From an uncultured Trueperaceae bacterium (GTDB lineage: Bacteria > Deinococcota > Deinococci > Deinococcales > Trueperaceae), in assembly GCA_963815215.1 (NCBI GenBank), contig CAWFFU010000011.1, forward strand, positions 256,001 to 320,000: DNA of 64,000 nt, in the 5' to 3' direction. Numbering within the stretch: the stretch's first letter is position 1; every line of letters begins with the position of its first letter. Below, one piece after another: positions 29,571 through 38,743 of this stretch. The translations under genes and the position numbers were made by a program. A model generated the notes under the pieces. That model was not told where the DNA came from. It saw nothing but the letters and a program-made list of their open reading frames with translations, and made no database searches.

Positions 29571-30365
29571 GTGAGCACCATCCGACTCGCCATCGTGGGC
29601 GCCGGCAAGATGGGGGGCGCCGTACTGCAGGGAGCCCTGCGGGCCGAGGTGCTGTCGGCCGACGAGATCGGCATCTTCCATCCCAACCCGCGCCGCCTGG
29701 CCGAGCTCTCCGAGCGCTACGGCGTGACCGGCCTGGACGATGACGCGCTCCATCACGCCGAGCGCGTGCTGCTGTCGGTGAAGCCGCAGTCGTTCGACAG
29801 CGTGGCGCCGCTGGTGGCCCAGCGCAACGCCTCGTTCCTGTCGATCATGGCGGGCGTCACCGCCCGCACCATCGCCCGTCGCGTGGGCTCGCAGCGGGTG
29901 ATCCGCGCCATGCCCAACCTGGGAGCGAGCATGGGCGTGAGCGCCACCGCCCTGGCACCGCTGCCGGAGGCCACGGCCGAGGATCTGGCGATGGCCCGGA
30001 CCCTGTTCGGAGCGGTCGGTCGCGTCTACGACGTGCGGGAGGAGCTCTTCGACGCCTTCACCGGCCTCGCCGGCTCCGGTCCGGCGTTCGTCGCAGTGGT
30101 GGCGGAGGCTCTCGCCGACGGCGGCGTGCGTACCGGGCTCGACCGCGACACCTCGCGCGATCTGGCTCGGCAGGTGCTGCTGGCGGCGTCGCGGCTGCTC
30201 GAGTCCAAGCGCCCCAGCGAGCTCAAGGACGAGGTGGCGAGCGCAGGGGGTACGGCCATCGCAGGCATACGGGCGCTCGAGCGCCACCGGCTGCGCTTCG
30301 CCCTCATCGACGCCGTCGAGCAGGCGGCGGAGCGCGCAGCGGCGTTGAGTCGCGAGGACGCCTGA
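29571..30365 (+). CDS. proC: Pyrroline-5-carboxylate reductase
   Basis: IVGAGKMG, VKPQ, RAMPN, GSGPAF, VASAGGTAIAG. Confidence 0.95.
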   Translation: MSTIRLAIVGAGKMGGAVLQGALRAEVLSADEIGIFHPNPRRLAELSERYGVTGLDDDALHHAERVLLSVKPQSFDSVAPLVAQRNASFLSIMAGVTARTIARRVGSQRVIRAMPNLGASMGVSATALAPLPEATAEDLAMARTLFGAVGRVYDVREELFDAFTGLAGSGPAFVAVVAEALADGGVRTGLDRDTSRDLARQVLLAASRLLESKRPSELKDEVASAGGTAIAGIRALERHRLRFALIDAVEQAAERAAALSREDA

Positions 30366-30967
30366 TGACAGGGACGTCGGCGCCCGGCCGTGCGCGTTCC
30401 GCGGCGCTCGGGCTGTTGAGCGTCGCGCTGCTGGTGCTGCTGTCGGTCGGCCTCGCGGCCGATCCGCCCGGCTACTTCCCGGCCCGCGCGGGCATGAGCT
30501 GGACCTACTCCAGCGGCGAGACGCAACAGCTCGCCGGGCCGCGGCAGGTCGACGGCCACCAGGTCATGGTCCTCACGCACTACTTCAACGGCGTGCCGAT
30601 CTCCGAGGACTACCTGCAGTTCGGCCCGGACGGGGTGAAGACGCTCGGGACCGCGGCGGGAGGCAAGGTGACGCTCTACCCCACCCCGCTGACCGTCTAC
30701 CCCGCCGCGCCCCTGAAGCCGGGCGCACAGTGGCAGAGCACGACCAAGCTGCCGTCGTTCGACATCACGCTGTCGTCCGAGGTCCTGGGCGTGCGCGGGG
30801 TCAAGACGCAGGCGGGGCGTTTCAACGCCCTCCAGATCCGTCAGCGAACCCTCACCAGCAACGGCGCCAAGACCGTCATGGATCTGTTCTTCGTGCCCAG
30901 CGTAGGCATCGTGCGGTTCGTGACGCAGGACGGAACCACCATCGACCTGATCGACAAGAACTTCTGA
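30365..30967 (+). CDS. Secreted beta-rich hypothetical protein
   Basis: Signal peptide, YFP...WTY, V.T.AG.F, FVPSVGIVR pattern. Confidence 0.65.
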   Translation: MTGTSAPGRARSAALGLLSVALLVLLSVGLAADPPGYFPARAGMSWTYSSGETQQLAGPRQVDGHQVMVLTHYFNGVPISEDYLQFGPDGVKTLGTAAGGKVTLYPTPLTVYPAAPLKPGAQWQSTTKLPSFDITLSSEVLGVRGVKTQAGRFNALQIRQRTLTSNGAKTVMDLFFVPSVGIVRFVTQDGTTIDLIDKNF

Positions 30968-30974
30968 GGCTCGC

Positions 30975-32201
30975 TCAGCCGCGCCCCAGCAGCTCCGCCT
31001 TGAAGGCCGCGAAGCGATCGTCGGCCAGGCTGGCGCGGATGTCCTCCATCAGACGCGCCATGAAGCGCAAGTTGTGCACGCTCACGAGTTGCTGGGCGAG
31101 CTGCTCGTTGGCCTTGAACAGATGCCGCACGTAGCTCCGGCTGAAGCCCGTGCAGGTCGAGCAATCGCACCCCGCCTCCAGTGGCCGCAGGTCCTCGACG
31201 AAGCGCGCGTTGCGCAGGTTGAGGCGGAAGTTGGCGATCGGCTCGCCGTCGTCTCCGCGCCGCACGAATGCCGCGCCGTTGCGGGCGTTCCGGGTCGGCG
31301 CCACGCAGTCGAAGGTGTCCACACCCCGCTCGACGGCCTCGAGGATGCTCGGCACGTCGCCGATGCCCAGAAGATGCCGCGGTTTGCCCTCGGGCAACTC
31401 GGGCACCGTCCAATCGAGCACCGCGTACATGTCCTGGAGGGTGCTCCCCAGGTTCCCGCCGATCGCCATGCCGTCGAACGGCATGGCGGCGATGGTGGCG
31501 GCGCTCTCCCGGCGCAACCCCTGGAAGGCGCCCCCCTGCACCACCCCGAACAGGGCCTGCGGGTGAGCGTGCCTGGGCCCGGAGCTCTCGAACGCGCGCA
31601 GGCTGCGCTCGGCCCAGCGGTGCGTGCGCTGCATCGAGCGGCGCGTGTACTCCTCGTCGTGGAGCGGGCTGGTGCACTCGTCGAAGGCGAGCACCATGTC
31701 CGCGCCCAGGGCACGTTGCACGTCGATGGAGACCTCAGGCGAGAAGGTATGGAGGCTGCCATCGATGTGGCTCTTGAAGCGCACCCCCTCCTCGCGAATG
31801 CGCACCATCGAGCGGCCCCCTGGCAGACGCGGCGGCGCCTCGCCGGGGAAGATCGACGCCACCTTGCCGACGCCGTGCTCGATGGACGCGCCCAGCGAGA
31901 ACACCTGGAAGCCGCCCGAATCGGTCAGGATCGGGCCGTTCCAGTTCATGAAGCGGTGGAGCCCGCCGTGCCGCTCGACGACGTCGGCTCCCGGCCGCAG
32001 GTACAGATGGTAGGTGTTGGCGAACAGCAGCTGCGTTCCCGTGGCGGCCACCGCGTCCGGCGCCACCCCCTTGACCGCTGCCTGGGTGCCCACCACGACG
32101 AACGCTGGCGTGCGCACCGTGCCGTGCGGTGTCTCGAGCGTACCCAGCCGCGCCGCGCCGCGGCGCTGCTGGAGGGTGAAGGTCAGGGCATGCGTATCCA
32201 T
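30975..32201 (-). CDS. tgt: tRNA-guanine(34) transglycosylase
   Basis: NTYHLYLRPG, TDSGGFQVFS, DEC, GVVQGG, DTFDCVAPTR, CDCSTC...HN zinc site. Confidence 0.96.
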   Translation of the reverse strand: MDTHALTFTLQQRRGAARLGTLETPHGTVRTPAFVVVGTQAAVKGVAPDAVAATGTQLLFANTYHLYLRPGADVVERHGGLHRFMNWNGPILTDSGGFQVFSLGASIEHGVGKVASIFPGEAPPRLPGGRSMVRIREEGVRFKSHIDGSLHTFSPEVSIDVQRALGADMVLAFDECTSPLHDEEYTRRSMQRTHRWAERSLRAFESSGPRHAHPQALFGVVQGGAFQGLRRESAATIAAMPFDGMAIGGNLGSTLQDMYAVLDWTVPELPEGKPRHLLGIGDVPSILEAVERGVDTFDCVAPTRNARNGAAFVRRGDDGEPIANFRLNLRNARFVEDLRPLEAGCDCSTCTGFSRSYVRHLFKANEQLAQQLVSVHNLRFMARLMEDIRASLADDRFAAFKAELLGRG

Positions 32202-32383
32202 GGTGGCGGCCCGCCATCTTACCCGCTTCCCGCCGGCGGCAGCGTTCCGTCAGCCCCACGGCCGAGACGGGACAACGATCCCTCCCGGCACACCGTGACG
32301 CCGATGTTAAGCTCCTGTTTGGCGGATTTCACGTGTTCTCACCGACGAGCAGCGTAGTATGCACGTGTCGGGCAGGTCCCGAC

Positions 32384-32456
32384 CTTGGAAGCGATGAAGC
32401 CTGTCTCACCACGTGGGCGCTTGAGACGGGTGGAGCGAGTAGCGCAACCGGCCAAG
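32384..32456 (+). ncRNA. c-di-GMP-II riboswitch aptamer 1
   Basis: CTTGG-AAGCGATGAAG-CCTGTCTCA-ccacgTGGGCGCt-TGAGACGGG-TGGAGCGAGTAGCGCAACCGG-CCAAG: P1 cttgg/ccaag, kink-turn-type TGAA/GGAG, stem, pseudoknot GCGC/GCGC and AGTAG.GCAACCG tail, as in the class II consensus. Confidence 0.88.
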
Positions 32457-32573
32457 ATGAGTCACCCCTCATCGACAGCCTGACAGTGCCCACGAACGAC
32501 CCCTTCCGGGGTCGACCAGGGCGACCACGGTATCCGAGCCCGGTGCATCCGCGCCGCACGCAACGGTCCCGAG

Positions 32574-32648
32574 GCCTTGGACGCGATGAAACCTGTCCTG
32601 CACTTGGGCGCTTGGGACAGGTGGAGCGAGTAGCGCAACCGGCCAGGC
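32574..32648 (+). ncRNA. c-di-GMP-II riboswitch aptamer 2
   Basis: GCCTTGG-ACGCGATGAA-ACCTGTCCTG-cactTGGGCGCt-TGGGACAGGT-GGAGCGAGTAGCGCAACCGG-CCAGGC; same core as aptamer 1 with compensatory stem changes. Confidence 0.88.
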
Positions 32649-32718
32649 AGGTCCGCAGGTTTGCAGGCTTCCCATCGTCGGTCAGGCGCCCCGATCTCTT
32701 CGCGATGCGAGGATGGCG

Positions 32719-33720
32719 ATGGCGCAGATGAGCAACCAGCCGAGCCAGACACCTACACGGCGCACCCGCCGCCCCGGTCGGCATGCCATGATCGGTTTCT
32801 CCGCCATGCTGGCCGCGCTGCTGCTGGCCACCGGCTGTTCGGGCGTGGCCACCGAGCCGCCCCAGGCGGTCACGAACGCCACGGATGTCAGACCGATGTT
32901 CGGCGCCTTCACTTACGGCGGCGTCTGGCAGGGCATGCAACCCGTCCACCAGCTCGAGGACCTGCTCGGCCGAAAGCTCGACGTGGTGCACTGGTTCATG
33001 AGCTGGGACACGCCCTATGACGTTGCGCTGGTCGAGTCCGCCATGGCCGGCGGACGCCTGCCGATGATCACCTGGCAGCCCTACCACCAGTCCGTCAGCG
33101 ATATCGCCGCCGGCACCTACGACGACCTCATGCGGAGCTTCGCTCGCGGTGTACGCGCGACGCCCGGCCTCGTCTACGTGCGGCCCTTCCCCGAGATGAA
33201 CGGCGACTGGGAGCCGTGGAACGGGCAGCCCGCCGAGTTCGTGAAGGCGTGGCGTCGCATGGTCGACATCTTCCGCGCAGAAGGCGCCGACAACGTGCGC
33301 TGGGTGTGGTCGCCGAACATCACCGACCAGCCCCGCACGACCGCCAACGCCATGGAGAAGTACTACCCGGGCAGCGCCTACGTCGACGTCCTCGCCCTGG
33401 ACGGCTACAACTGGGGCACGTCGCAGGGCTGGAGCCAGTGGCGTAGCTTCGACCAGATCTTCGCCGAACCCTATGCCCGCATCACCGCTCTGGGCCCCCA
33501 GCCGGTGTGGGTCGCCGAGGTCGCCTCGACCAACAAGGGCGGCGACAAAGCGGCCTGGGTCGCGAACATGCTCAGCAGCACCAAGTTCCCTCGCATCCGC
33601 GCGCTGATCTGGTTCAACGAGAACAGCGACCTGGATTGGCGCCTGGACAATTCGCTGGCCGTCATCCAGGCCGCTCGCGCGAGCCTCACCCCGAGTCTGC
33701 AGACGACCGCCAGCCGCTGA
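32719..33720 (+). CDS. Glycoside hydrolase family 26 lipoprotein
   Basis: Lipobox LATGC; PMITWQP, IAAGTYD, RPFPEMNGDWEPW (acid/base Glu), WVWSPN, YYPG..YVDVLALDGYN, VAEVAS (nucleophile). Start 32713, 32719 or 32728. Confidence 0.9.
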   Translation: MAQMSNQPSQTPTRRTRRPGRHAMIGFSAMLAALLLATGCSGVATEPPQAVTNATDVRPMFGAFTYGGVWQGMQPVHQLEDLLGRKLDVVHWFMSWDTPYDVALVESAMAGGRLPMITWQPYHQSVSDIAAGTYDDLMRSFARGVRATPGLVYVRPFPEMNGDWEPWNGQPAEFVKAWRRMVDIFRAEGADNVRWVWSPNITDQPRTTANAMEKYYPGSAYVDVLALDGYNWGTSQGWSQWRSFDQIFAEPYARITALGPQPVWVAEVASTNKGGDKAAWVANMLSSTKFPRIRALIWFNENSDLDWRLDNSLAVIQAARASLTPSLQTTASR

Positions 33721-33787
33721 GGCTAGCCGGCCGAGCCCTTCGCGTCTCTGTCTCTGAACACGACCGCGCGCGCCACGCCACTTCGCG

Positions 33788-36595
33788 TCAGCGCGCGCTG
33801 GCCGTGTCCGTCGGCGCCACGACGGCGCGCGAGCCCCCCGAGAACAACCGCTGCTGGACCGCGCTGTACACCGCCCCGTCCTCGACCCCGTTCGCCGCCA
33901 CGATGGCGCTGCTGCGCCGGTACGCGGCGGCGAGGTCGAGCTTGCCGGAGGCGACCTCGCCGCTCAACGCCACCAGCTGCCGTTCGGGTGCGGCGAGCGA
34001 CGAAGGATCGACCCGGTAGGCGGCGTAGGCGCTGCCGAGTGCGTCGGCCAACGGGCCGAGGTGCACCATGGCCTCCACCGGCCCGCGCAGTTTCGGCGCG
34101 ACCCGGCCGCTGCGCGTTACGCCGTGCAGCGGATTGATGTACAGAGCGTAGGCGACGGCGTCGTCGGTGACGACCGGGCGCGCCAGCGACCACGCCAGTT
34201 TCGCCGCGCCGGCACAGACCGAGAAGTCGGGATCGAAGACGTTGAACGAGCCGCTCAGCAGGTGGGGATTGTACAGCGCGGAGTTCGGATCCTCCGAGAC
34301 CGCCCGCAGCAGCGTCAGCGCGTCGGACGTCATCTGCGACAGTCCCTTGTCGCCGGTCTCCCCTACCGCCAGGGGGTCGAGGTAGGACTCGTTGATCAGG
34401 ACCTGCAGCATGAGGCGCACCGGAACGTCGTAGGTCGAAGCCGCCTGCTCGATGTAGGGCTCGATCGGGGCGAGCCGGCCCAGCATGAGCAGCTCGAACG
34501 GGTCCAGTGGCTGGTAGGCGCCGGCCGAGCCCGGGAGCGGCTGCGGGGCGGCGCTGGGATGCCGTAGGAAGACCGGCCGGCAGTACGCGGACAGCGTGGA
34601 GATCGGCTCGAGCACGGACCCGGTGCCGGAGCCGGCCCTGGAGCCGGCCGCGGAGCCAGTCGCGGACGGCGCGAGAGCGGTCCGTGTCGCGGCACTGTCG
34701 GTCCGGGAGATCACGGCGAAGGCCCCGGGGGCCGCCAGCGCGACCGGCCCTGCCAGCGTGACGCGGACCTGTGGCGCCGTCAGCGACAGCGCAGGGAGCG
34801 GCGAAGAGCGGAGCGGCAGGGCGATCGAAGCCTGGAGCAGCGGGATGGTGGCGCTTTGGGAGCCCGGGCTCAGCAACGCGGGAGCCACCTGCGCGACCGG
34901 CAGCGGCAGGTCGTCGTGTTGCGCCATGTCGAGCGGGGTCGTGCGAGCCAGCAGCCGCTCGATCGCGAGCTGGTCGGCACCCGATGCGGGCGCCAGCGCC
35001 AGGATGGCCACGAACACCACCGACAGGGCGGCGACGATGGAGGCCGCCGTTCCAACGGTGCGGCCGTCGACACCCCGCGTGGTGGGCCGCTCCCACGCCA
35101 CGCCCTGCGTGCGCGTGACCACGCTGCGGCTCGCCGCGCGGCGTTCGGCCAGGAACGCCGGGATCACGCTGGTGGCCGCCGCCACGAAGCTGACGGGGTT
35201 GGCCACCTTGAGAACCATATAGGGCAACCACGTGCTGACCAGCCGTCGACCCGCGAAGCGCGCCGCGGAGCCGCGCCGCCGGCGACCGTCACGCGCCTGC
35301 ACGTAGAAGCCCGAGAAGGTCATGAGGCCGGTCGCTGCCAGGTCCAGCCCGAACCAGGTGGCCAGGATGCGCACCAGGTCGGTCGTTCCGATCGTTCCCG
35401 CCGCGGTGAGGGCCAGCATCACCGGCAGCAGCAGTAGCAACAGCAACCCCAACAGGTTCTCGACTTGCGCAGCCCACAGCGTGAAGCGCACGTTGGAGCT
35501 CATCACCCTGTCGCCCGGATCCCCCAGGACCCGTTTCAGGGCGTTCTGGATGCCGCCGCCGTTCCAGCGTTCGATCTGCCGCAGGTAGCCGCCGACGTGC
35601 GCGGGATCCTCGGTGTACATCAGCGCGTCGCCCACGAAGCGGGCGTTCCCGCCGTGACGAAGCTCGATCACGTCGTGGCGGTCGAAGGCCTCCTCGAAGG
35701 GCAGCTCGGCGCCGTCCACGACGATCCGGAAGCCGCGCCGGGTGAGCTCGGCGGGCGTCAGGCGCTCGTCGTGCCGCGGCACTCGCTGCGCCGTGAGCGT
35801 CAGGTCGTGGTCCTCGGTCTGGGTGTCGGGCGGCATGGGCAGGACGTTGCGCCGCACCACGAAGCCGCAGCCGACCACCGTGTACAGGCGGCTGGCCCCC
35901 CACAGGCCGCCGTCACCCAGCATGCCGGCCTGGCCCCGGCGCAGCACGGCGGCGAAGGCGTACTCGGCCGAGCGACCGGCCGCGATGAAGCGCTGGGTCG
36001 GCCCGGCCCCCTCAGGAACGTAGGACATCACGGACCCGGACTGGAGGGCGTAGTCCTCGAGCACGGGCCGGCCGGCGATCCAACGCAGGCGGTAGAAGTT
36101 CCTCTCGAGCGCGGCGACGAACTCCGGATCGAAGACCGTGTCGCCGTCCACCAGAAGCACGCGCTCGGAACTCAGGATGCGGCTCGCCACCAGGTTGTTG
36201 ATCGCCTCGGACTTGGCCGTCCGCTGCGCGTACACCACCACCGCCACGCCCATGGCGTGATCGTGGTGGCTCCAGCGTTCGAGCGTGGCGCTCAGCCCCG
36301 GGGCACGGCCGGCCGAGTCCAGCTCGAACCCGTGCCCGACCAGGGTCGCGCCGACGACCTCGTGGGTGCGGTCGGTCCCGCCGTTGATGCTGACGATGAG
36401 TTCGTCGGGCAGGCGGCGCTGCGACAGCAGCGACGTCAGCGCCCGCCTCGCTCCGACCTCTTCGTTGTACATCGGCGAGACGACCGCCAGCCTGTCGGGT
36501 CCGCGGACGGGCAGACTACGGTCAGGGACCGTACTGAGCGCTGCGTTGAGAAGGGTTGTGGGCATCCCGGACAGGCCGAAGAAGTTGGGCATCAC
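33788..36595 (-). CDS. Processive GT2 glycan synthase fused to C-terminal lytic-transglycosylase (SLT)-like domain
   Basis: SPMYNEE, KSEAIN, DGDT, TED and QIERW (D,D,D,QxxRW); several TM helices; Pro/Ala/Ser linker; then IEQAASTYDVP..LM.QVLINES.LDPLAVG..GDKGLSQM...FDP..SV.AGA..L. Confidence 0.85.
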   Translation of the reverse strand: MMPNFFGLSGMPTTLLNAALSTVPDRSLPVRGPDRLAVVSPMYNEEVGARRALTSLLSQRRLPDELIVSINGGTDRTHEVVGATLVGHGFELDSAGRAPGLSATLERWSHHDHAMGVAVVVYAQRTAKSEAINNLVASRILSSERVLLVDGDTVFDPEFVAALERNFYRLRWIAGRPVLEDYALQSGSVMSYVPEGAGPTQRFIAAGRSAEYAFAAVLRRGQAGMLGDGGLWGASRLYTVVGCGFVVRRNVLPMPPDTQTEDHDLTLTAQRVPRHDERLTPAELTRRGFRIVVDGAELPFEEAFDRHDVIELRHGGNARFVGDALMYTEDPAHVGGYLRQIERWNGGGIQNALKRVLGDPGDRVMSSNVRFTLWAAQVENLLGLLLLLLLPVMLALTAAGTIGTTDLVRILATWFGLDLAATGLMTFSGFYVQARDGRRRRGSAARFAGRRLVSTWLPYMVLKVANPVSFVAAATSVIPAFLAERRAASRSVVTRTQGVAWERPTTRGVDGRTVGTAASIVAALSVVFVAILALAPASGADQLAIERLLARTTPLDMAQHDDLPLPVAQVAPALLSPGSQSATIPLLQASIALPLRSSPLPALSLTAPQVRVTLAGPVALAAPGAFAVISRTDSAATRTALAPSATGSAAGSRAGSGTGSVLEPISTLSAYCRPVFLRHPSAAPQPLPGSAGAYQPLDPFELLMLGRLAPIEPYIEQAASTYDVPVRLMLQVLINESYLDPLAVGETGDKGLSQMTSDALTLLRAVSEDPNSALYNPHLLSGSFNVFDPDFSVCAGAAKLAWSLARPVVTDDAVAYALYINPLHGVTRSGRVAPKLRGPVEAMVHLGPLADALGSAYAAYRVDPSSLAAPERQLVALSGEVASGKLDLAAAYRRSSAIVAANGVEDGAVYSAVQQRLFSGGSRAVVAPTDTASAR

Positions 36596-36796
36596 GAAGT
36601 CCTATCCGTTGGAGCTCTTCCACTCGAGGGCGGCGGCGGGGGCGGGGCGCCGCACTTTCGTCGCGCCTGTCGGGCCGCGACGACCCGCTGTGAAACCTCT
36701 CGCTCTCTATGTAACACTGCTCTCCCCGCCCTGTTGTCCAGCCGTCACAGCCCTGTGCGCTGGGTGGTTTACGATCGTGTGATTTGGGAGGTGCGC

Positions 36797-37420
36797 ATGG
36801 CACTTCACATCAGCGGTAAGCTCGTGGCCGTAGGCCTCGTCCTGGCCGCACTGATCACCGCATTCAGCGCCCCCCGCAGCGTACAGAACGCGGGTGTCGC
36901 CTTGACCCTCACCCCAACCGCCACGGTCCTCACCACGCCTGCCTCGCCGGCGCCGCTGCGGGCCGGGTCGGTCGGGCCCGAGGCCAATCCTGTGTTCACG
37001 CTGCGGGCCACGGGTTACAACTCGATGGTCGACCAGACCGACGCCACCCCGTTCATCACCTCGACTGGACAGCGTACCCGTTTCGGGATCATCGCGGTGA
37101 GCCCTGACCTACTGGCCCACGCCCTGCCGTACGGCAGCCTGGTGCGCATCCGGGACCTCGGCAACTACTACACCGGCCGCGGCTACGGGCACTACCAGAG
37201 CCTGCTGGACGGCCAGGGACTGTTCATCGTCGAGGACACCATGCACTACCGCAAGCGCGATCAGATCGACATCTGGTTCAGCGACTACGCCAGCGCGGTG
37301 AACTGGGGCATGCGCAAGGTGAGCGTCGAGGTCATCCGTTATGGGCGCAACGGCCCCAAACTCGAACCCTCGCGTGCCAACGACTTCAGCGGGACACCGC
37401 AACTGTTCGCCTCGCGCTGA
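36797..37420 (+). CDS. 3D-domain (MltA-like Asp-Asp-Asp) cell-wall protein
   Basis: GGGAGG SD; N-terminal TM/signal; ATGYNS..QTD.TPFITSTG, IIAVSPDL, LPYGS.V, VEDTM, QIDIW. Confidence 0.85.
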   Translation: MALHISGKLVAVGLVLAALITAFSAPRSVQNAGVALTLTPTATVLTTPASPAPLRAGSVGPEANPVFTLRATGYNSMVDQTDATPFITSTGQRTRFGIIAVSPDLLAHALPYGSLVRIRDLGNYYTGRGYGHYQSLLDGQGLFIVEDTMHYRKRDQIDIWFSDYASAVNWGMRKVSVEVIRYGRNGPKLEPSRANDFSGTPQLFASR

Positions 37421-37561: not shown

Positions 37562-38743
37562 GTGCGGAGCCTCGTACCGTACCTGGCGTGGCGGCACGTC
37601 CGCCGACGCGGCCTGCAATCCGGCCTCACCGTGGTCGGCGTGGCGGTCGGCGTCATGGTCCTGATCGTCGCGCTGTCGCTGACCAACGGCTTCGTGGACG
37701 AGCTGATCCGCAGCACCCTGAAGGCCACCCCCATGCTCACGCTCGAGAGCTACATCTCCGGGCAGACGGTGCCGAACGACCCCGCGGTCGGCCGGGCCCT
37801 GGCGGGTCGCCCGTCGGTCACTGCGGTCGCCCCCTTCCTCAGCACCCAGGCGCTCATCGCGCGGCGCGCCAGCGCCAGCCTCGGGATCACCGCCCGGCAG
37901 GGCTACACCCAGATCGTGGGCATCGACCCGGCGCAGGAGACGCAAGTCCTCGACCTGCCGATCCTCCAGAAGCAGGCGACGGCCCTGGCCCGGCGGGACG
38001 GCATCGTGCTGGGCGCCTCGCTGGCGCAGCAGCTCGGCGTGATCGCAGGGGACAAGGTGGTGCTGCGCGACATCACGGGCCACACCGCCGAGCTCACCGT
38101 GGCAGGCACCTTCCGCGTCGGCAACGAGCTCATCGACGGGATCGCGTCGTACATGTCGCTGGCCAACCTGCAGCAGTACATGCACGTGGGGGACCGGATC
38201 AGCGGCTACCACTTGCGACTGGCCGACCCGCAGCGCGCTTCGGCGCTCGGTGTGACGCTCGGCGACGCCTTCGGCCTGCGCCCGGTCTCCTGGGACAGCC
38301 TGTTCGCCAACCTCATCAGCCAGCTCCGCCTGCAGAAGGCGGTCATCGCGGTGGTGGTGTTCCTCATCGTCCTTGTCGCCGCCATGGGGATCGCCAATAT
38401 CCTGGTGTTGACGGTATCGGAGAAGACCGAAGAGATCGCCATCCTGCGGGCGCTGGGCGCTACCGAGCGGCAGGTGCTGGCCGTCTTCACGCTGGAGGGG
38501 CTGCTGCTCGGCGCCACCGGCACGCTCCTGGGAGCCCTCCTCGGGCTGGGCGTGAGCACCTACTTCCGTCTGCAGCCCTACCCCCTGCCGGGCAACCTCT
38601 ACTTCATCACCCAGCTCCCCGTGCAGCTCCAGCCGACCGACGTGCTGTGGGTATGCGCGCTGTCGATCGGCACCAGCGTGCTCGCCGGGCTCTTCCCCGC
38701 GCGGCGCGCGGCCAACCTCGACCCCGTCGACGTCCTGCGCTGA
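37562..38743 (+). CDS. LolC/E (FtsX-like) ABC transporter permease
   Basis: GVAVGVMVLIVALSLTNGF, VSEKTEEIAILRALGA, LYFITQLP, PARRAANLDPVDVLR. Confidence 0.88.
   Translation: MRSLVPYLAWRHVRRRGLQSGLTVVGVAVGVMVLIVALSLTNGFVDELIRSTLKATPMLTLESYISGQTVPNDPAVGRALAGRPSVTAVAPFLSTQALIARRASASLGITARQGYTQIVGIDPAQETQVLDLPILQKQATALARRDGIVLGASLAQQLGVIAGDKVVLRDITGHTAELTVAGTFRVGNELIDGIASYMSLANLQQYMHVGDRISGYHLRLADPQRASALGVTLGDAFGLRPVSWDSLFANLISQLRLQKAVIAVVVFLIVLVAAMGIANILVLTVSEKTEEIAILRALGATERQVLAVFTLEGLLLGATGTLLGALLGLGVSTYFRLQPYPLPGNLYFITQLPVQLQPTDVLWVCALSIGTSVLAGLFPARRAANLDPVDVLR

Follow-up and report, generated by a model that had tools for sequence, protein, structure and literature searches.

The window analyzed in this study is a stretch of 64,000 nucleotides from the genome of an uncultured Trueperaceae bacterium (GenBank assembly GCA_963815215.1, contig CAWFFU010000011.1, positions 256,001 to 320,000 of the forward strand; genome of 3.3 Mb, 97% complete). 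It contains a locus in which the gene of a glycoside hydrolase family 26 (GH26) lipoprotein is preceded by two tandem class II riboswitch aptamers for cyclic di-GMP (c-di-GMP), and is convergent to a gene encoding a family 2 glycosyltransferase (GT2) fused to a lytic transglycosylase (SLT) domain. The original prediction, made from the sequence alone, had described these elements, together with a divergently transcribed gene for a 3D-domain protein, as a candidate for a compact glycan synthesis and wall-remodelling module situated between the housekeeping genes tgt and lolC/E. Both flanking genes were identified by Pfam, the GH26 lipoprotein behind its two aptamers was recovered by RF01786, PF02156, and a lipobox-like site, and the 935-aa fusion by PF00535 and PF01464.

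The GT2-SLT gene was found in 77 of the 128 Trueperaceae genomes and in none of the 236 other Deinococcota genomes searched with a profile of 119 sequences, two candidates being scored per genome. GH26, at E <= 1e-30, occurs in 72 genomes of the family, namely in 71 of the 77 that have GT2-SLT and in one of the 51 that do not; this lone GH26 is 41% identical and lies inside an unrelated glycosyltransferase cluster. The two genes are at most 5 kb apart in 63 of the 77 genomes and convergent in 62. In the gene maps, where the low-GC loci were placed by tblastn, the linkage persists away from tgt and after re-orientation (L125/L195, L137/L199, L145/L206, L149, and L204), the riboswitch-GH26 part being convergent to GT2-SLT, co-directional with it (L145/L206), or divergent from it (L204). 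Since GH26, GT2-SLT, and the riboswitch are co-inherited as a unit, the refutation envisaged with the original prediction, independent occurrence with no conserved linkage, fails. Judged from these sequences, the riboswitch-GH26 and GT2-SLT genes very probably form a functional unit. Some observations speak against it. The genes are not linked on one contig in 14 of the 77 genomes, six of which have no GH26 match (all six loci end at a contig edge on the GH26 side, and one shows a GH26 fragment), and in genome G047 they are truly separate, 208 kb apart. Further, the counts are not independent because the genomes are kin, and they show a pattern rather than significance.

Table 1. Features of the riboswitch-GH26/GT2-SLT locus and its flanks (positions in the window)
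Feature	Position	Strand	Evidence and remarks
c-di-GMP-II aptamer 1	32378-32462	+	RF01786, 64.4 bits, E 4e-12
c-di-GMP-II aptamer 2	32573-32653	+	RF01786, 71.0 bits, E 6e-14; pseudoknot loop GGGCGC at 32606-32611
Predicted anti-aptamer switch segment	32679-32692	+	complementary to the aptamer 2 pseudoknot loop; alternatively pairs at the base of the ribosome-binding site hairpin
Predicted hairpin over Shine-Dalgarno GAGGA (32709-32713) and likely start ATG (32719)	32697-32721	+	folding and sequence reading
GH26 lichenase-like lipoprotein, 335 aa from first ATG	32713-33720	+	PF02156, E 1e-10
GT2-SLT fusion, 935 aa	33788-36595	-	PF00535, E 7e-7; PF01464, E 2.8e-6 (residues 714-804)
SLT (GH23-like) C-terminal domain, residues 664-925, catalytic E736, predicted extracytoplasmic	33821-34606	-	
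3D/YuiC-like secreted protein, 207 aa	36797-37420	+	conserved flank outside the module
tgt, left flank	30975-32201	-	PF01702, E 4e-135
LolC/E-type permease, right flank	37562-38743	+	PF02687, PF12704; travels with the 3D-like gene

Both aptamers score above the Rfam gathering score of RF01786 (53.5 bits), and at both of them the canonical family outscores the clan variants. They have the marks of the class given in PMC13715770, that is, the P4 pseudoknot complement and the ligand-contacting A69, A70, and G73: the P4 loop GCGC complements a downstream GCGC, and both aptamers contain the ligand-contact segment CAACCG, which does not vary among 15 aligned copies. Many relatives, but not all, have a second aptamer further upstream. 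In 17 further loci, mostly from other contexts, all riboswitch hits (8 of 8) lie before GH26 or just 3' of GT2-SLT, and none lies upstream of GT2-SLT. The suggestion that c-di-GMP acts through RNA on the hydrolase is thus supported at the sequence level. Control of the GT2 itself by a riboswitch or a PilZ domain was rejected, as no upstream aptamer occurs in the 17 loci and a loose regular expression found a PilZ-like pattern in only four of 119 sequences. In an alignment of the intergenic region between GT2-SLT and the 3D-like gene, no conserved element is evident except on the promoter side of the latter.

The switch segment downstream of the last aptamer is conserved among homologous leaders, in many of which it is situated about 31 nt upstream of the start codon. 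Its duplex with the aptamer loop has an energy of -17.4 kcal/mol at this locus, compared to -11.5 in shuffles; of 40 homologous leaders, 29 have a duplex that is stronger than in dinucleotide shuffles (p <= 0.05), the means being -16.0 and -11.4 kcal/mol. When the anti-aptamer helix was forced, 17 of 29 leaders had a more open ribosome-binding site (RBS) than with the locked aptamer, and six had a less open one (means 0.37 and 0.33); eight leaders with no in-frame start 15-50 nt past the switch segment, as well as those lacking the motif, were excluded from this comparison. Unconstrained folding of RBS accessibility, where the start codons were partly mis-called, was neutral (10 versus 9 of 40 leaders) and so does not help the proposed direction of the switch. 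The minimum free energy of the whole leader is no better than that of shuffles. A scan of the leader for sigma-70 promoters and terminators found none, which fits a translational platform without proving one. Because no terminator-like site was found, the forced folds mostly open the RBS, and the unconstrained test is neutral, the switch is likely a translational platform on these folding models, and the OFF direction at high c-di-GMP is only modestly favoured.

The genome contains seven RF01786 matches, forming three tandem pairs and one single aptamer, and the c-di-GMP-II targets other than GH26 are surface proteins. The second pair (L187, G000:C8:285801-287833) lies before the gene of a lipoprotein of 587 aa that combines Ig-like and Pro-rich parts with a right-handed beta-helix. 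The third pair (L188, G000:C3:1070163-1070998) and the single aptamer (L189, G000:C11:356427-361426) are located before genes of small secreted proteins and of a surface protein of 837 aa, which carries SdrD-B/carboxypeptidase-regulatory repeats and belongs to a pilus- or adhesin-like cluster. The first L188 aptamer and the L189 aptamer deviate from the canonical CAA ligand-contact triplet. There are also 22 matches to GGDEF, of which some seem to be copies of one another on small contigs; several have identical scores on different small contigs (C1, C5, C6, C9, and C14), which suggests duplicated or mobile segments.

The GH26 protein scores 41.9 bits against PF02156 (cut-off 20.2), and its N-terminal hydrophobic stretch runs up to a lipobox-like Gly-Cys site; a lipobox-like site was observed in 51 of 76 GH26 N-termini. 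Among solved structures, the lichenase CtLic26A is nearest to the protein (E 5e-55, residues 70-324), ahead of the mannanases (2e-10 or weaker) by 45 orders of magnitude in E-value; the xylanases, too, are more distant than CtLic26A. The acid/base E161 and the nucleophile E269 are invariant in all 63 distinct sequences, and both align to the catalytic glutamates of CtLic26A. By sequence the enzyme is lichenase-like rather than a mannanase, a feature overlooked in the original prediction, and a role as a dietary mannanase was rejected on the same comparison.

The full-length AlphaFold model of GT2-SLT has a mean predicted local distance difference test score (pLDDT) of 87.7 and a disordered linker at residues 569-663. 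The GT-A domain (approximately residues 33-370) contains the DGD, TED, and QxxRW motifs and is followed by a gating-loop-like WERP at 501-504; D150xD152, T260ED, Q340xxRW, and W501 are invariant in 119 of 119 sequences. A Foldseek search with the N-terminal part ranks hyaluronan, chitin, and cellulose synthases first. Family-averaged hydropathy predicts three transmembrane (TM) segments, at about 380-399, 410-429, and 516-535; the loops that join the second to the third are basic. This odd number would place the SLT domain outside the membrane, leaving no cytoplasmic C-terminus, which would explain the missing PilZ domain; the original prediction had seen no PilZ motif in the GT2, and PF07238 has no match anywhere in the genome.

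Modelled alone, the SLT domain has a pLDDT of 95.9. In the VIA comparison it matches MltC (Z 14.4, root-mean-square deviation [rmsd] 2.7, 144 residues aligned), Slt (14.3), a GH23 chitinase (10.9), and g-lysozyme (10.3), with modest Foldseek E-values of 7e-4. Residues E736, S737, G751, Q754, Y816, and N821 are invariant in all 119 sequences, the third motif being the variant YALYIN. Conservation within the protein is highest in the SLT core (0.73 versus 0.63 for the GT domain); for this reason, and given the invariant E736, the domain does not appear to be a relic. In these models the SLT-like tail of the original prediction has the fold and the catalytic glutamate of family-1 lytic transglycosylases. 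There is one other SLT gene in the genome.

Among 1.8 billion representatives searched, 22 are near-full-length fusions; next come GT2 relatives that stand alone, 476-517 aa long (one of the clusters is named Patescibacteria), and stand-alone SLT relatives (one is named Dehalococcoidia). Since such stand-alone relatives exist, two mobile parts seem to have been joined to give the fusion. The ESM Atlas returned only generic SLT and GT2 clusters. The GT2-SLT family comprises 155 clusters at 90% identity. A divergent full-length fusion of 844 aa on an 82-kb contig (P0135), rich in Lys and Asn and sharing 33-35% identity with the others, may be a case of the fusion outside Trueperaceae. The GT2-SLT gene is spread over two or three open reading frames in G046 (L194) and G086 (L196), and a neighbouring gene for a GSDH-like propeller is split in G004 (L076:8819-10043), with L081 (G019) belonging to the same group of loci; these are either decaying genes or assembly errors.

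This secreted GSDH-like propeller, which the original prediction missed, is encoded beside GT2-SLT in at least 48 of the 77 genomes, in most relatives between GH26 and GT2-SLT, and is lacking from the locus studied here. A possible PQQ-dependent sugar dehydrogenase, it matches PF07995 (E 9e-48), scores 63 bits against TIGR03606 (cut-off 435), and is as close to the HHIP propellers as to E. coli Asd. In low-GC Trueperaceae lineages, the next gene after GT2-SLT on its strand encodes a beta-helix lipoprotein of 500-550 aa (PF13229, PF02415; L082:4265-5890, L125, L131, and L190-L195), possibly a polymer-binding or lyase partner.

The divergent 3D-like gene does not belong to the module. It borders the insertion site on the right: all 41 genomes that were sampled from the order have it, and it directly abuts tgt in five of ten mapped module-less loci of the family (G001, G006, G009, G015, and G018), a sixth case being implied and three loci being unreadable by the gene caller. 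In G021, the tgt-3D-lolE arrangement is intact and GT2-SLT is at another site. The gene adjoins lolC/E in other families too (G025, G033, and G039), and the module also occurs without it, so this part of the original prediction had to be given up. The proposed 3D-domain identity of its product is weak but plausible on sequence grounds. The 207-aa open reading frame has no Pfam match by itself, PF06725 (3D) matches only two of 12 orthologues (best E 0.026), and B. subtilis YuiC matches it with an E-value of 0.04; a by-eye check against the three-Asp motif found two of three Asp positions kept. On the other side of the locus, a conserved 200-aa secreted protein without a Pfam match is encoded between proC and tgt (30365-30967, plus strand) and occurs in most mapped loci of the family, with or without the module.

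A related GH26, 37-43% identical, was found in 22 of 125 Deinococcaceae genomes, and the neighbours of 21 of the 25 matches were examined. A PgaC-like GT2 that stands alone and is no more than a distant relative of GT2-SLT (31% over 224 columns) lies within 3 kb of GH26 in 15 of these 21 loci, and a GH16 gene is present in 14. The one GH16 protein tested has 19 PDB matches, all of them beta-glucanases and 1,3-1,4-specific wherever the linkage is named. Riboswitches for c-di-GMP occur in 10 of 12 loci scanned; in the sister loci L106 (G033:C4:3240157-3243663) and L229-L248, a c-di-GMP-II-GAG riboswitch precedes the GT2 gene, and a c-di-GMP-I or I-GGC riboswitch precedes GH16. Two families of lichenase-type hydrolases beside a c-di-GMP-controlled GT2 point, by their neighbourhood, to a candidate mixed-linkage glucan locus.

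We propose that the riboswitch-GH26 gene (one copy, or two as in 25 of the 77 GT2-SLT genomes), an optional GSDH-like propeller, and GT2-SLT would constitute a Trueperaceae-specific, synthase-dependent module. At the inner membrane, the GT2 would synthesize a beta-glucan whose links are most likely mixed (1,3/1,4). The third TM helix would place the tethered SLT domain outside, where it would nick peptidoglycan by the synthase so that the chain could cross the wall or settle in it; the membrane-anchored GH26 would trim or release this chain. Acting at translation and only on the GH26(-GSDH) mRNA, c-di-GMP would determine the fate of the polymer: without ligand, the switch segment would pair with the aptamer loop and the RBS would open, and with ligand the segment would help to bury the RBS, so that the polymer would be kept at high and shed at low c-di-GMP. 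We give about an even chance to the general scheme, in which a surface beta-glucan is accommodated by SLT opening the wall and is trimmed or shed by GH26 at low c-di-GMP. Among its parts, the cutting of peptidoglycan by the SLT domain seems likely and the action of GH26 on the GT2 product reasonably probable; that this product is a mixed-linkage glucan falls slightly short of an even chance. A more detailed version is tentative, and we would sooner doubt than expect it: a minimal three-helix GT2 would make mixed-linkage beta-glucan, its own SLT domain would drill through the thick wall or seat the chain there, c-di-GMP would act through a translational OFF riboswitch on the glucanase with no protein receptor, and Deinococcaceae would make the same polymer with a different GT2 and with class I and II riboswitch variants.

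Several findings pull against this scheme, most of them concerning the GT2. Its first Asp motif is NGG instead of DDG. The best VIA match of the N-terminal part is the three-helix mannosyltransferase PcManGT (Z 24.2, rmsd 3.4, 325 residues aligned), ahead of viral hyaluronan synthase (HAS; 22.6) and BcsA (22.1). The predicted three TM helices plus interface helices compare with a channel of about six helices in processive synthases, and the N-terminal TM pair is missing; in BcsA and HAS, N-terminal helices close the channel. The small number of TM helices and the PcManGT match make a full translocation channel doubtful, and a partner or an oligomer could complete it. Hence the "processive" label of the original prediction holds for the D,D,D,QxxRW motifs, with the first in its variant form, and is uncertain for the channel. 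In addition, no outer-membrane exporter was found: BcsC_C (PF05420) and Wza have no match in the genome, which extends the earlier observation that the locus has no such gene. In GH26, a proline replaces the histidine that precedes the acid/base glutamate of CtLic26A in 62 of 63 sequences, and the CtLic26A tyrosine near this residue corresponds to a variable position; because of the His-to-Pro change, the specificity of GH26 may differ from that of CtLic26A. Finally, two hints lead towards N-acetylglucosamine (GlcNAc): the only NCBIfam lean of the GT2 is to PgaC/IcaA (TIGR03937, 23-26 bits versus a cut-off of 422), and a CE4 deacetylase gene is found in five of 125 loci, from two lineages.

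The three TM helices, the leading position of PcManGT, and the lack of an exporter in locus and genome would also suit a GT2 that attaches a single glucose or a few to a lipid carrier, as PcManGT attaches mannose, yielding an oligosaccharide or glycolipid that decorates the envelope, with SLT making room and GH26 editing a short glucan; the stand-alone GT2 relatives, one of them named as Patescibacteria, mostly have one to three hydrophobic peaks as well. We consider this unlikely, given that Foldseek places the polymer synthases first, that QxxRW, the finger-helix TED, and the gating-loop Trp are invariant, and that an endo-type, often duplicated GH26 lipoprotein should fit a polymer better.

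The hints of GlcNAc would be accommodated if the GT2 made a polymer resembling poly-N-acetylglucosamine or chitin, the GH23-like tail trimmed this polymer instead of peptidoglycan, and GH26 had another substrate or a GlcNAc specificity. Apart from the weak PgaC/IcaA match, the GT2 has an EY motif, which we take to be common to PgaC, NodC, and chitin synthases; a GH23 chitinase appears in the fold list of the SLT domain; and CE4 is encoded in G114-type and G135 loci and is fused to the stand-alone SLT relative P0220. In the G114-type loci (L138:9519-10673, L199) CE4 takes the position of the GSDH-like gene, and in G135 (L198:2727-3977) it is upstream of GT2-SLT. Against such a polymer, CE4 is confined to those few loci and the constant partner is a lichenase-like GH26; moreover, a PgaC-like score does not imply GlcNAc, since the PgaC-like GT2 of Deinococcaceae travels with two lichenase-type hydrolases. 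A GlcNAc polymer is therefore distinctly improbable.

Passive synteny, in which a riboswitch-GH26 gene that serves to scavenge beta-glucan from plants or algae arrived once at the same site as the gene of an unrelated wall enzyme, the two being inherited together since, could draw on the site between tgt and the 3D-like gene shared by most loci, the opposite strands and separate promoters, and the low-GC lineages that keep GH26 elsewhere, but it is very unlikely in view of the joint absence from 50 of the 51 genomes without GT2-SLT, the linkage kept after relocation and re-orientation, the surface proteins controlled by the other aptamers, the parallel GT2-GH26 pairing in Deinococcaceae, and the mapped module loci, in which no sugar transporter or beta-glucosidase was seen.

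The proposed scheme of a c-di-GMP-controlled surface glucan resembles several known systems. The CslA-GlxA-CslZ-LpmP system of Streptomyces has an accessory GlxA, a propeller-type oxidoreductase and in this respect like the GSDH-like protein, and its glucanase is of family GH6 where GH26 is found here. In it, a GT2 synthase is likewise combined with a lipoprotein glucanase and a dedicated peptidoglycan cutter proposed to pass the glycan through the wall, so that CslA/CslZ/LpmP offer a precedent for wall hydrolysis serving glycan export (PMC9040799). The present locus differs in that the predicted wall cutter forms one polypeptide with the synthase and belongs to the family-1 lytic transglycosylases, and in its control by c-di-GMP riboswitches. 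The passage of polysaccharides through peptidoglycan is, according to the same paper, an open question even for well-studied cellulose systems (PMC9040799); with GT2 and lytic transglycosylase in one polypeptide, it becomes testable by one point mutant.

Few bacterial mixed-linkage synthases are known, among them BgsBA of Sinorhizobium meliloti and RiGT2 of Romboutsia ilealis, which share with GT2-SLT the D,D,D,QxxRW motifs and the proposed product class; BgsA also lacks PilZ and yet is linked to c-di-GMP (PMC10374906). By the descriptions in this source, the cytoplasmic C-terminus of BgsA binds c-di-GMP and RiGT2 has a PilZ domain (PMC10374906), whereas the fusion studied here has an SLT tail predicted to be periplasmic, with no BgsB-like partner in the locus. 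If our proposal is correct, the 155 clusters with their matching glucanase and the Deinococcaceae set would widen the list of such synthases. The hydrolase CtLic26A (PDB 2BV9), a GH26 beta-1,3/1,4-glucanase (PMC10470212), is a catabolic cellulosome module, whereas its relative here is a lipoprotein in a biosynthetic locus.

The archaeal lipid mannosyltransferase PcManGT (PDB 6YV7), with its half tunnel, is similar to the GT2 in its small membrane domain, but has 18% identity and no fused wall enzyme. The Bcs and Pga/Ica systems are similar in the GT2 fold, the paired extracytoplasmic hydrolase, and the link to c-di-GMP; they differ from the locus, which has no PilZ, BcsB, BcsC, or PgaA/B/D and only the three TM helices. 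No bcsB or bcsC genes are present in the mapped loci, PF07238 and PF05420 are unmatched in the genome, and the TIGR03937 scores and the rarity of CE4 separate the system from Pga/Ica. The view that the system is not a recognized one is upheld by these comparisons and by a literature search that yielded no account of a GT2-SLT fusion or of the locus, though subscription papers or supplements could hold one, supplements on c-di-GMP-II riboswitches may list these aptamers, and work on riboswitch variants may already note the association of GT2 and GH16 in Deinococcus.

Tandem c-di-GMP-II riboswitches are common, the catalogue listing 59 doublets, mostly clostridial and located before surface anchors (PMC9481103). 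The four class II switches of C. difficile are described as ON switches, and the logic of turning a release enzyme off at high c-di-GMP is found there in zmpI (PMC6366702). Compared to these, the switch studied here is likely translational, probably OFF, and acts on a glycoside hydrolase, its logic resembling that of zmpI. If so, c-di-GMP would control a matrix polymer via RNA on the degrading enzyme and not via the synthase. The riboswitch-GH26/GT2-SLT module is a real and conserved architecture, undescribed as far as the literature search reached, within a known kind of system.

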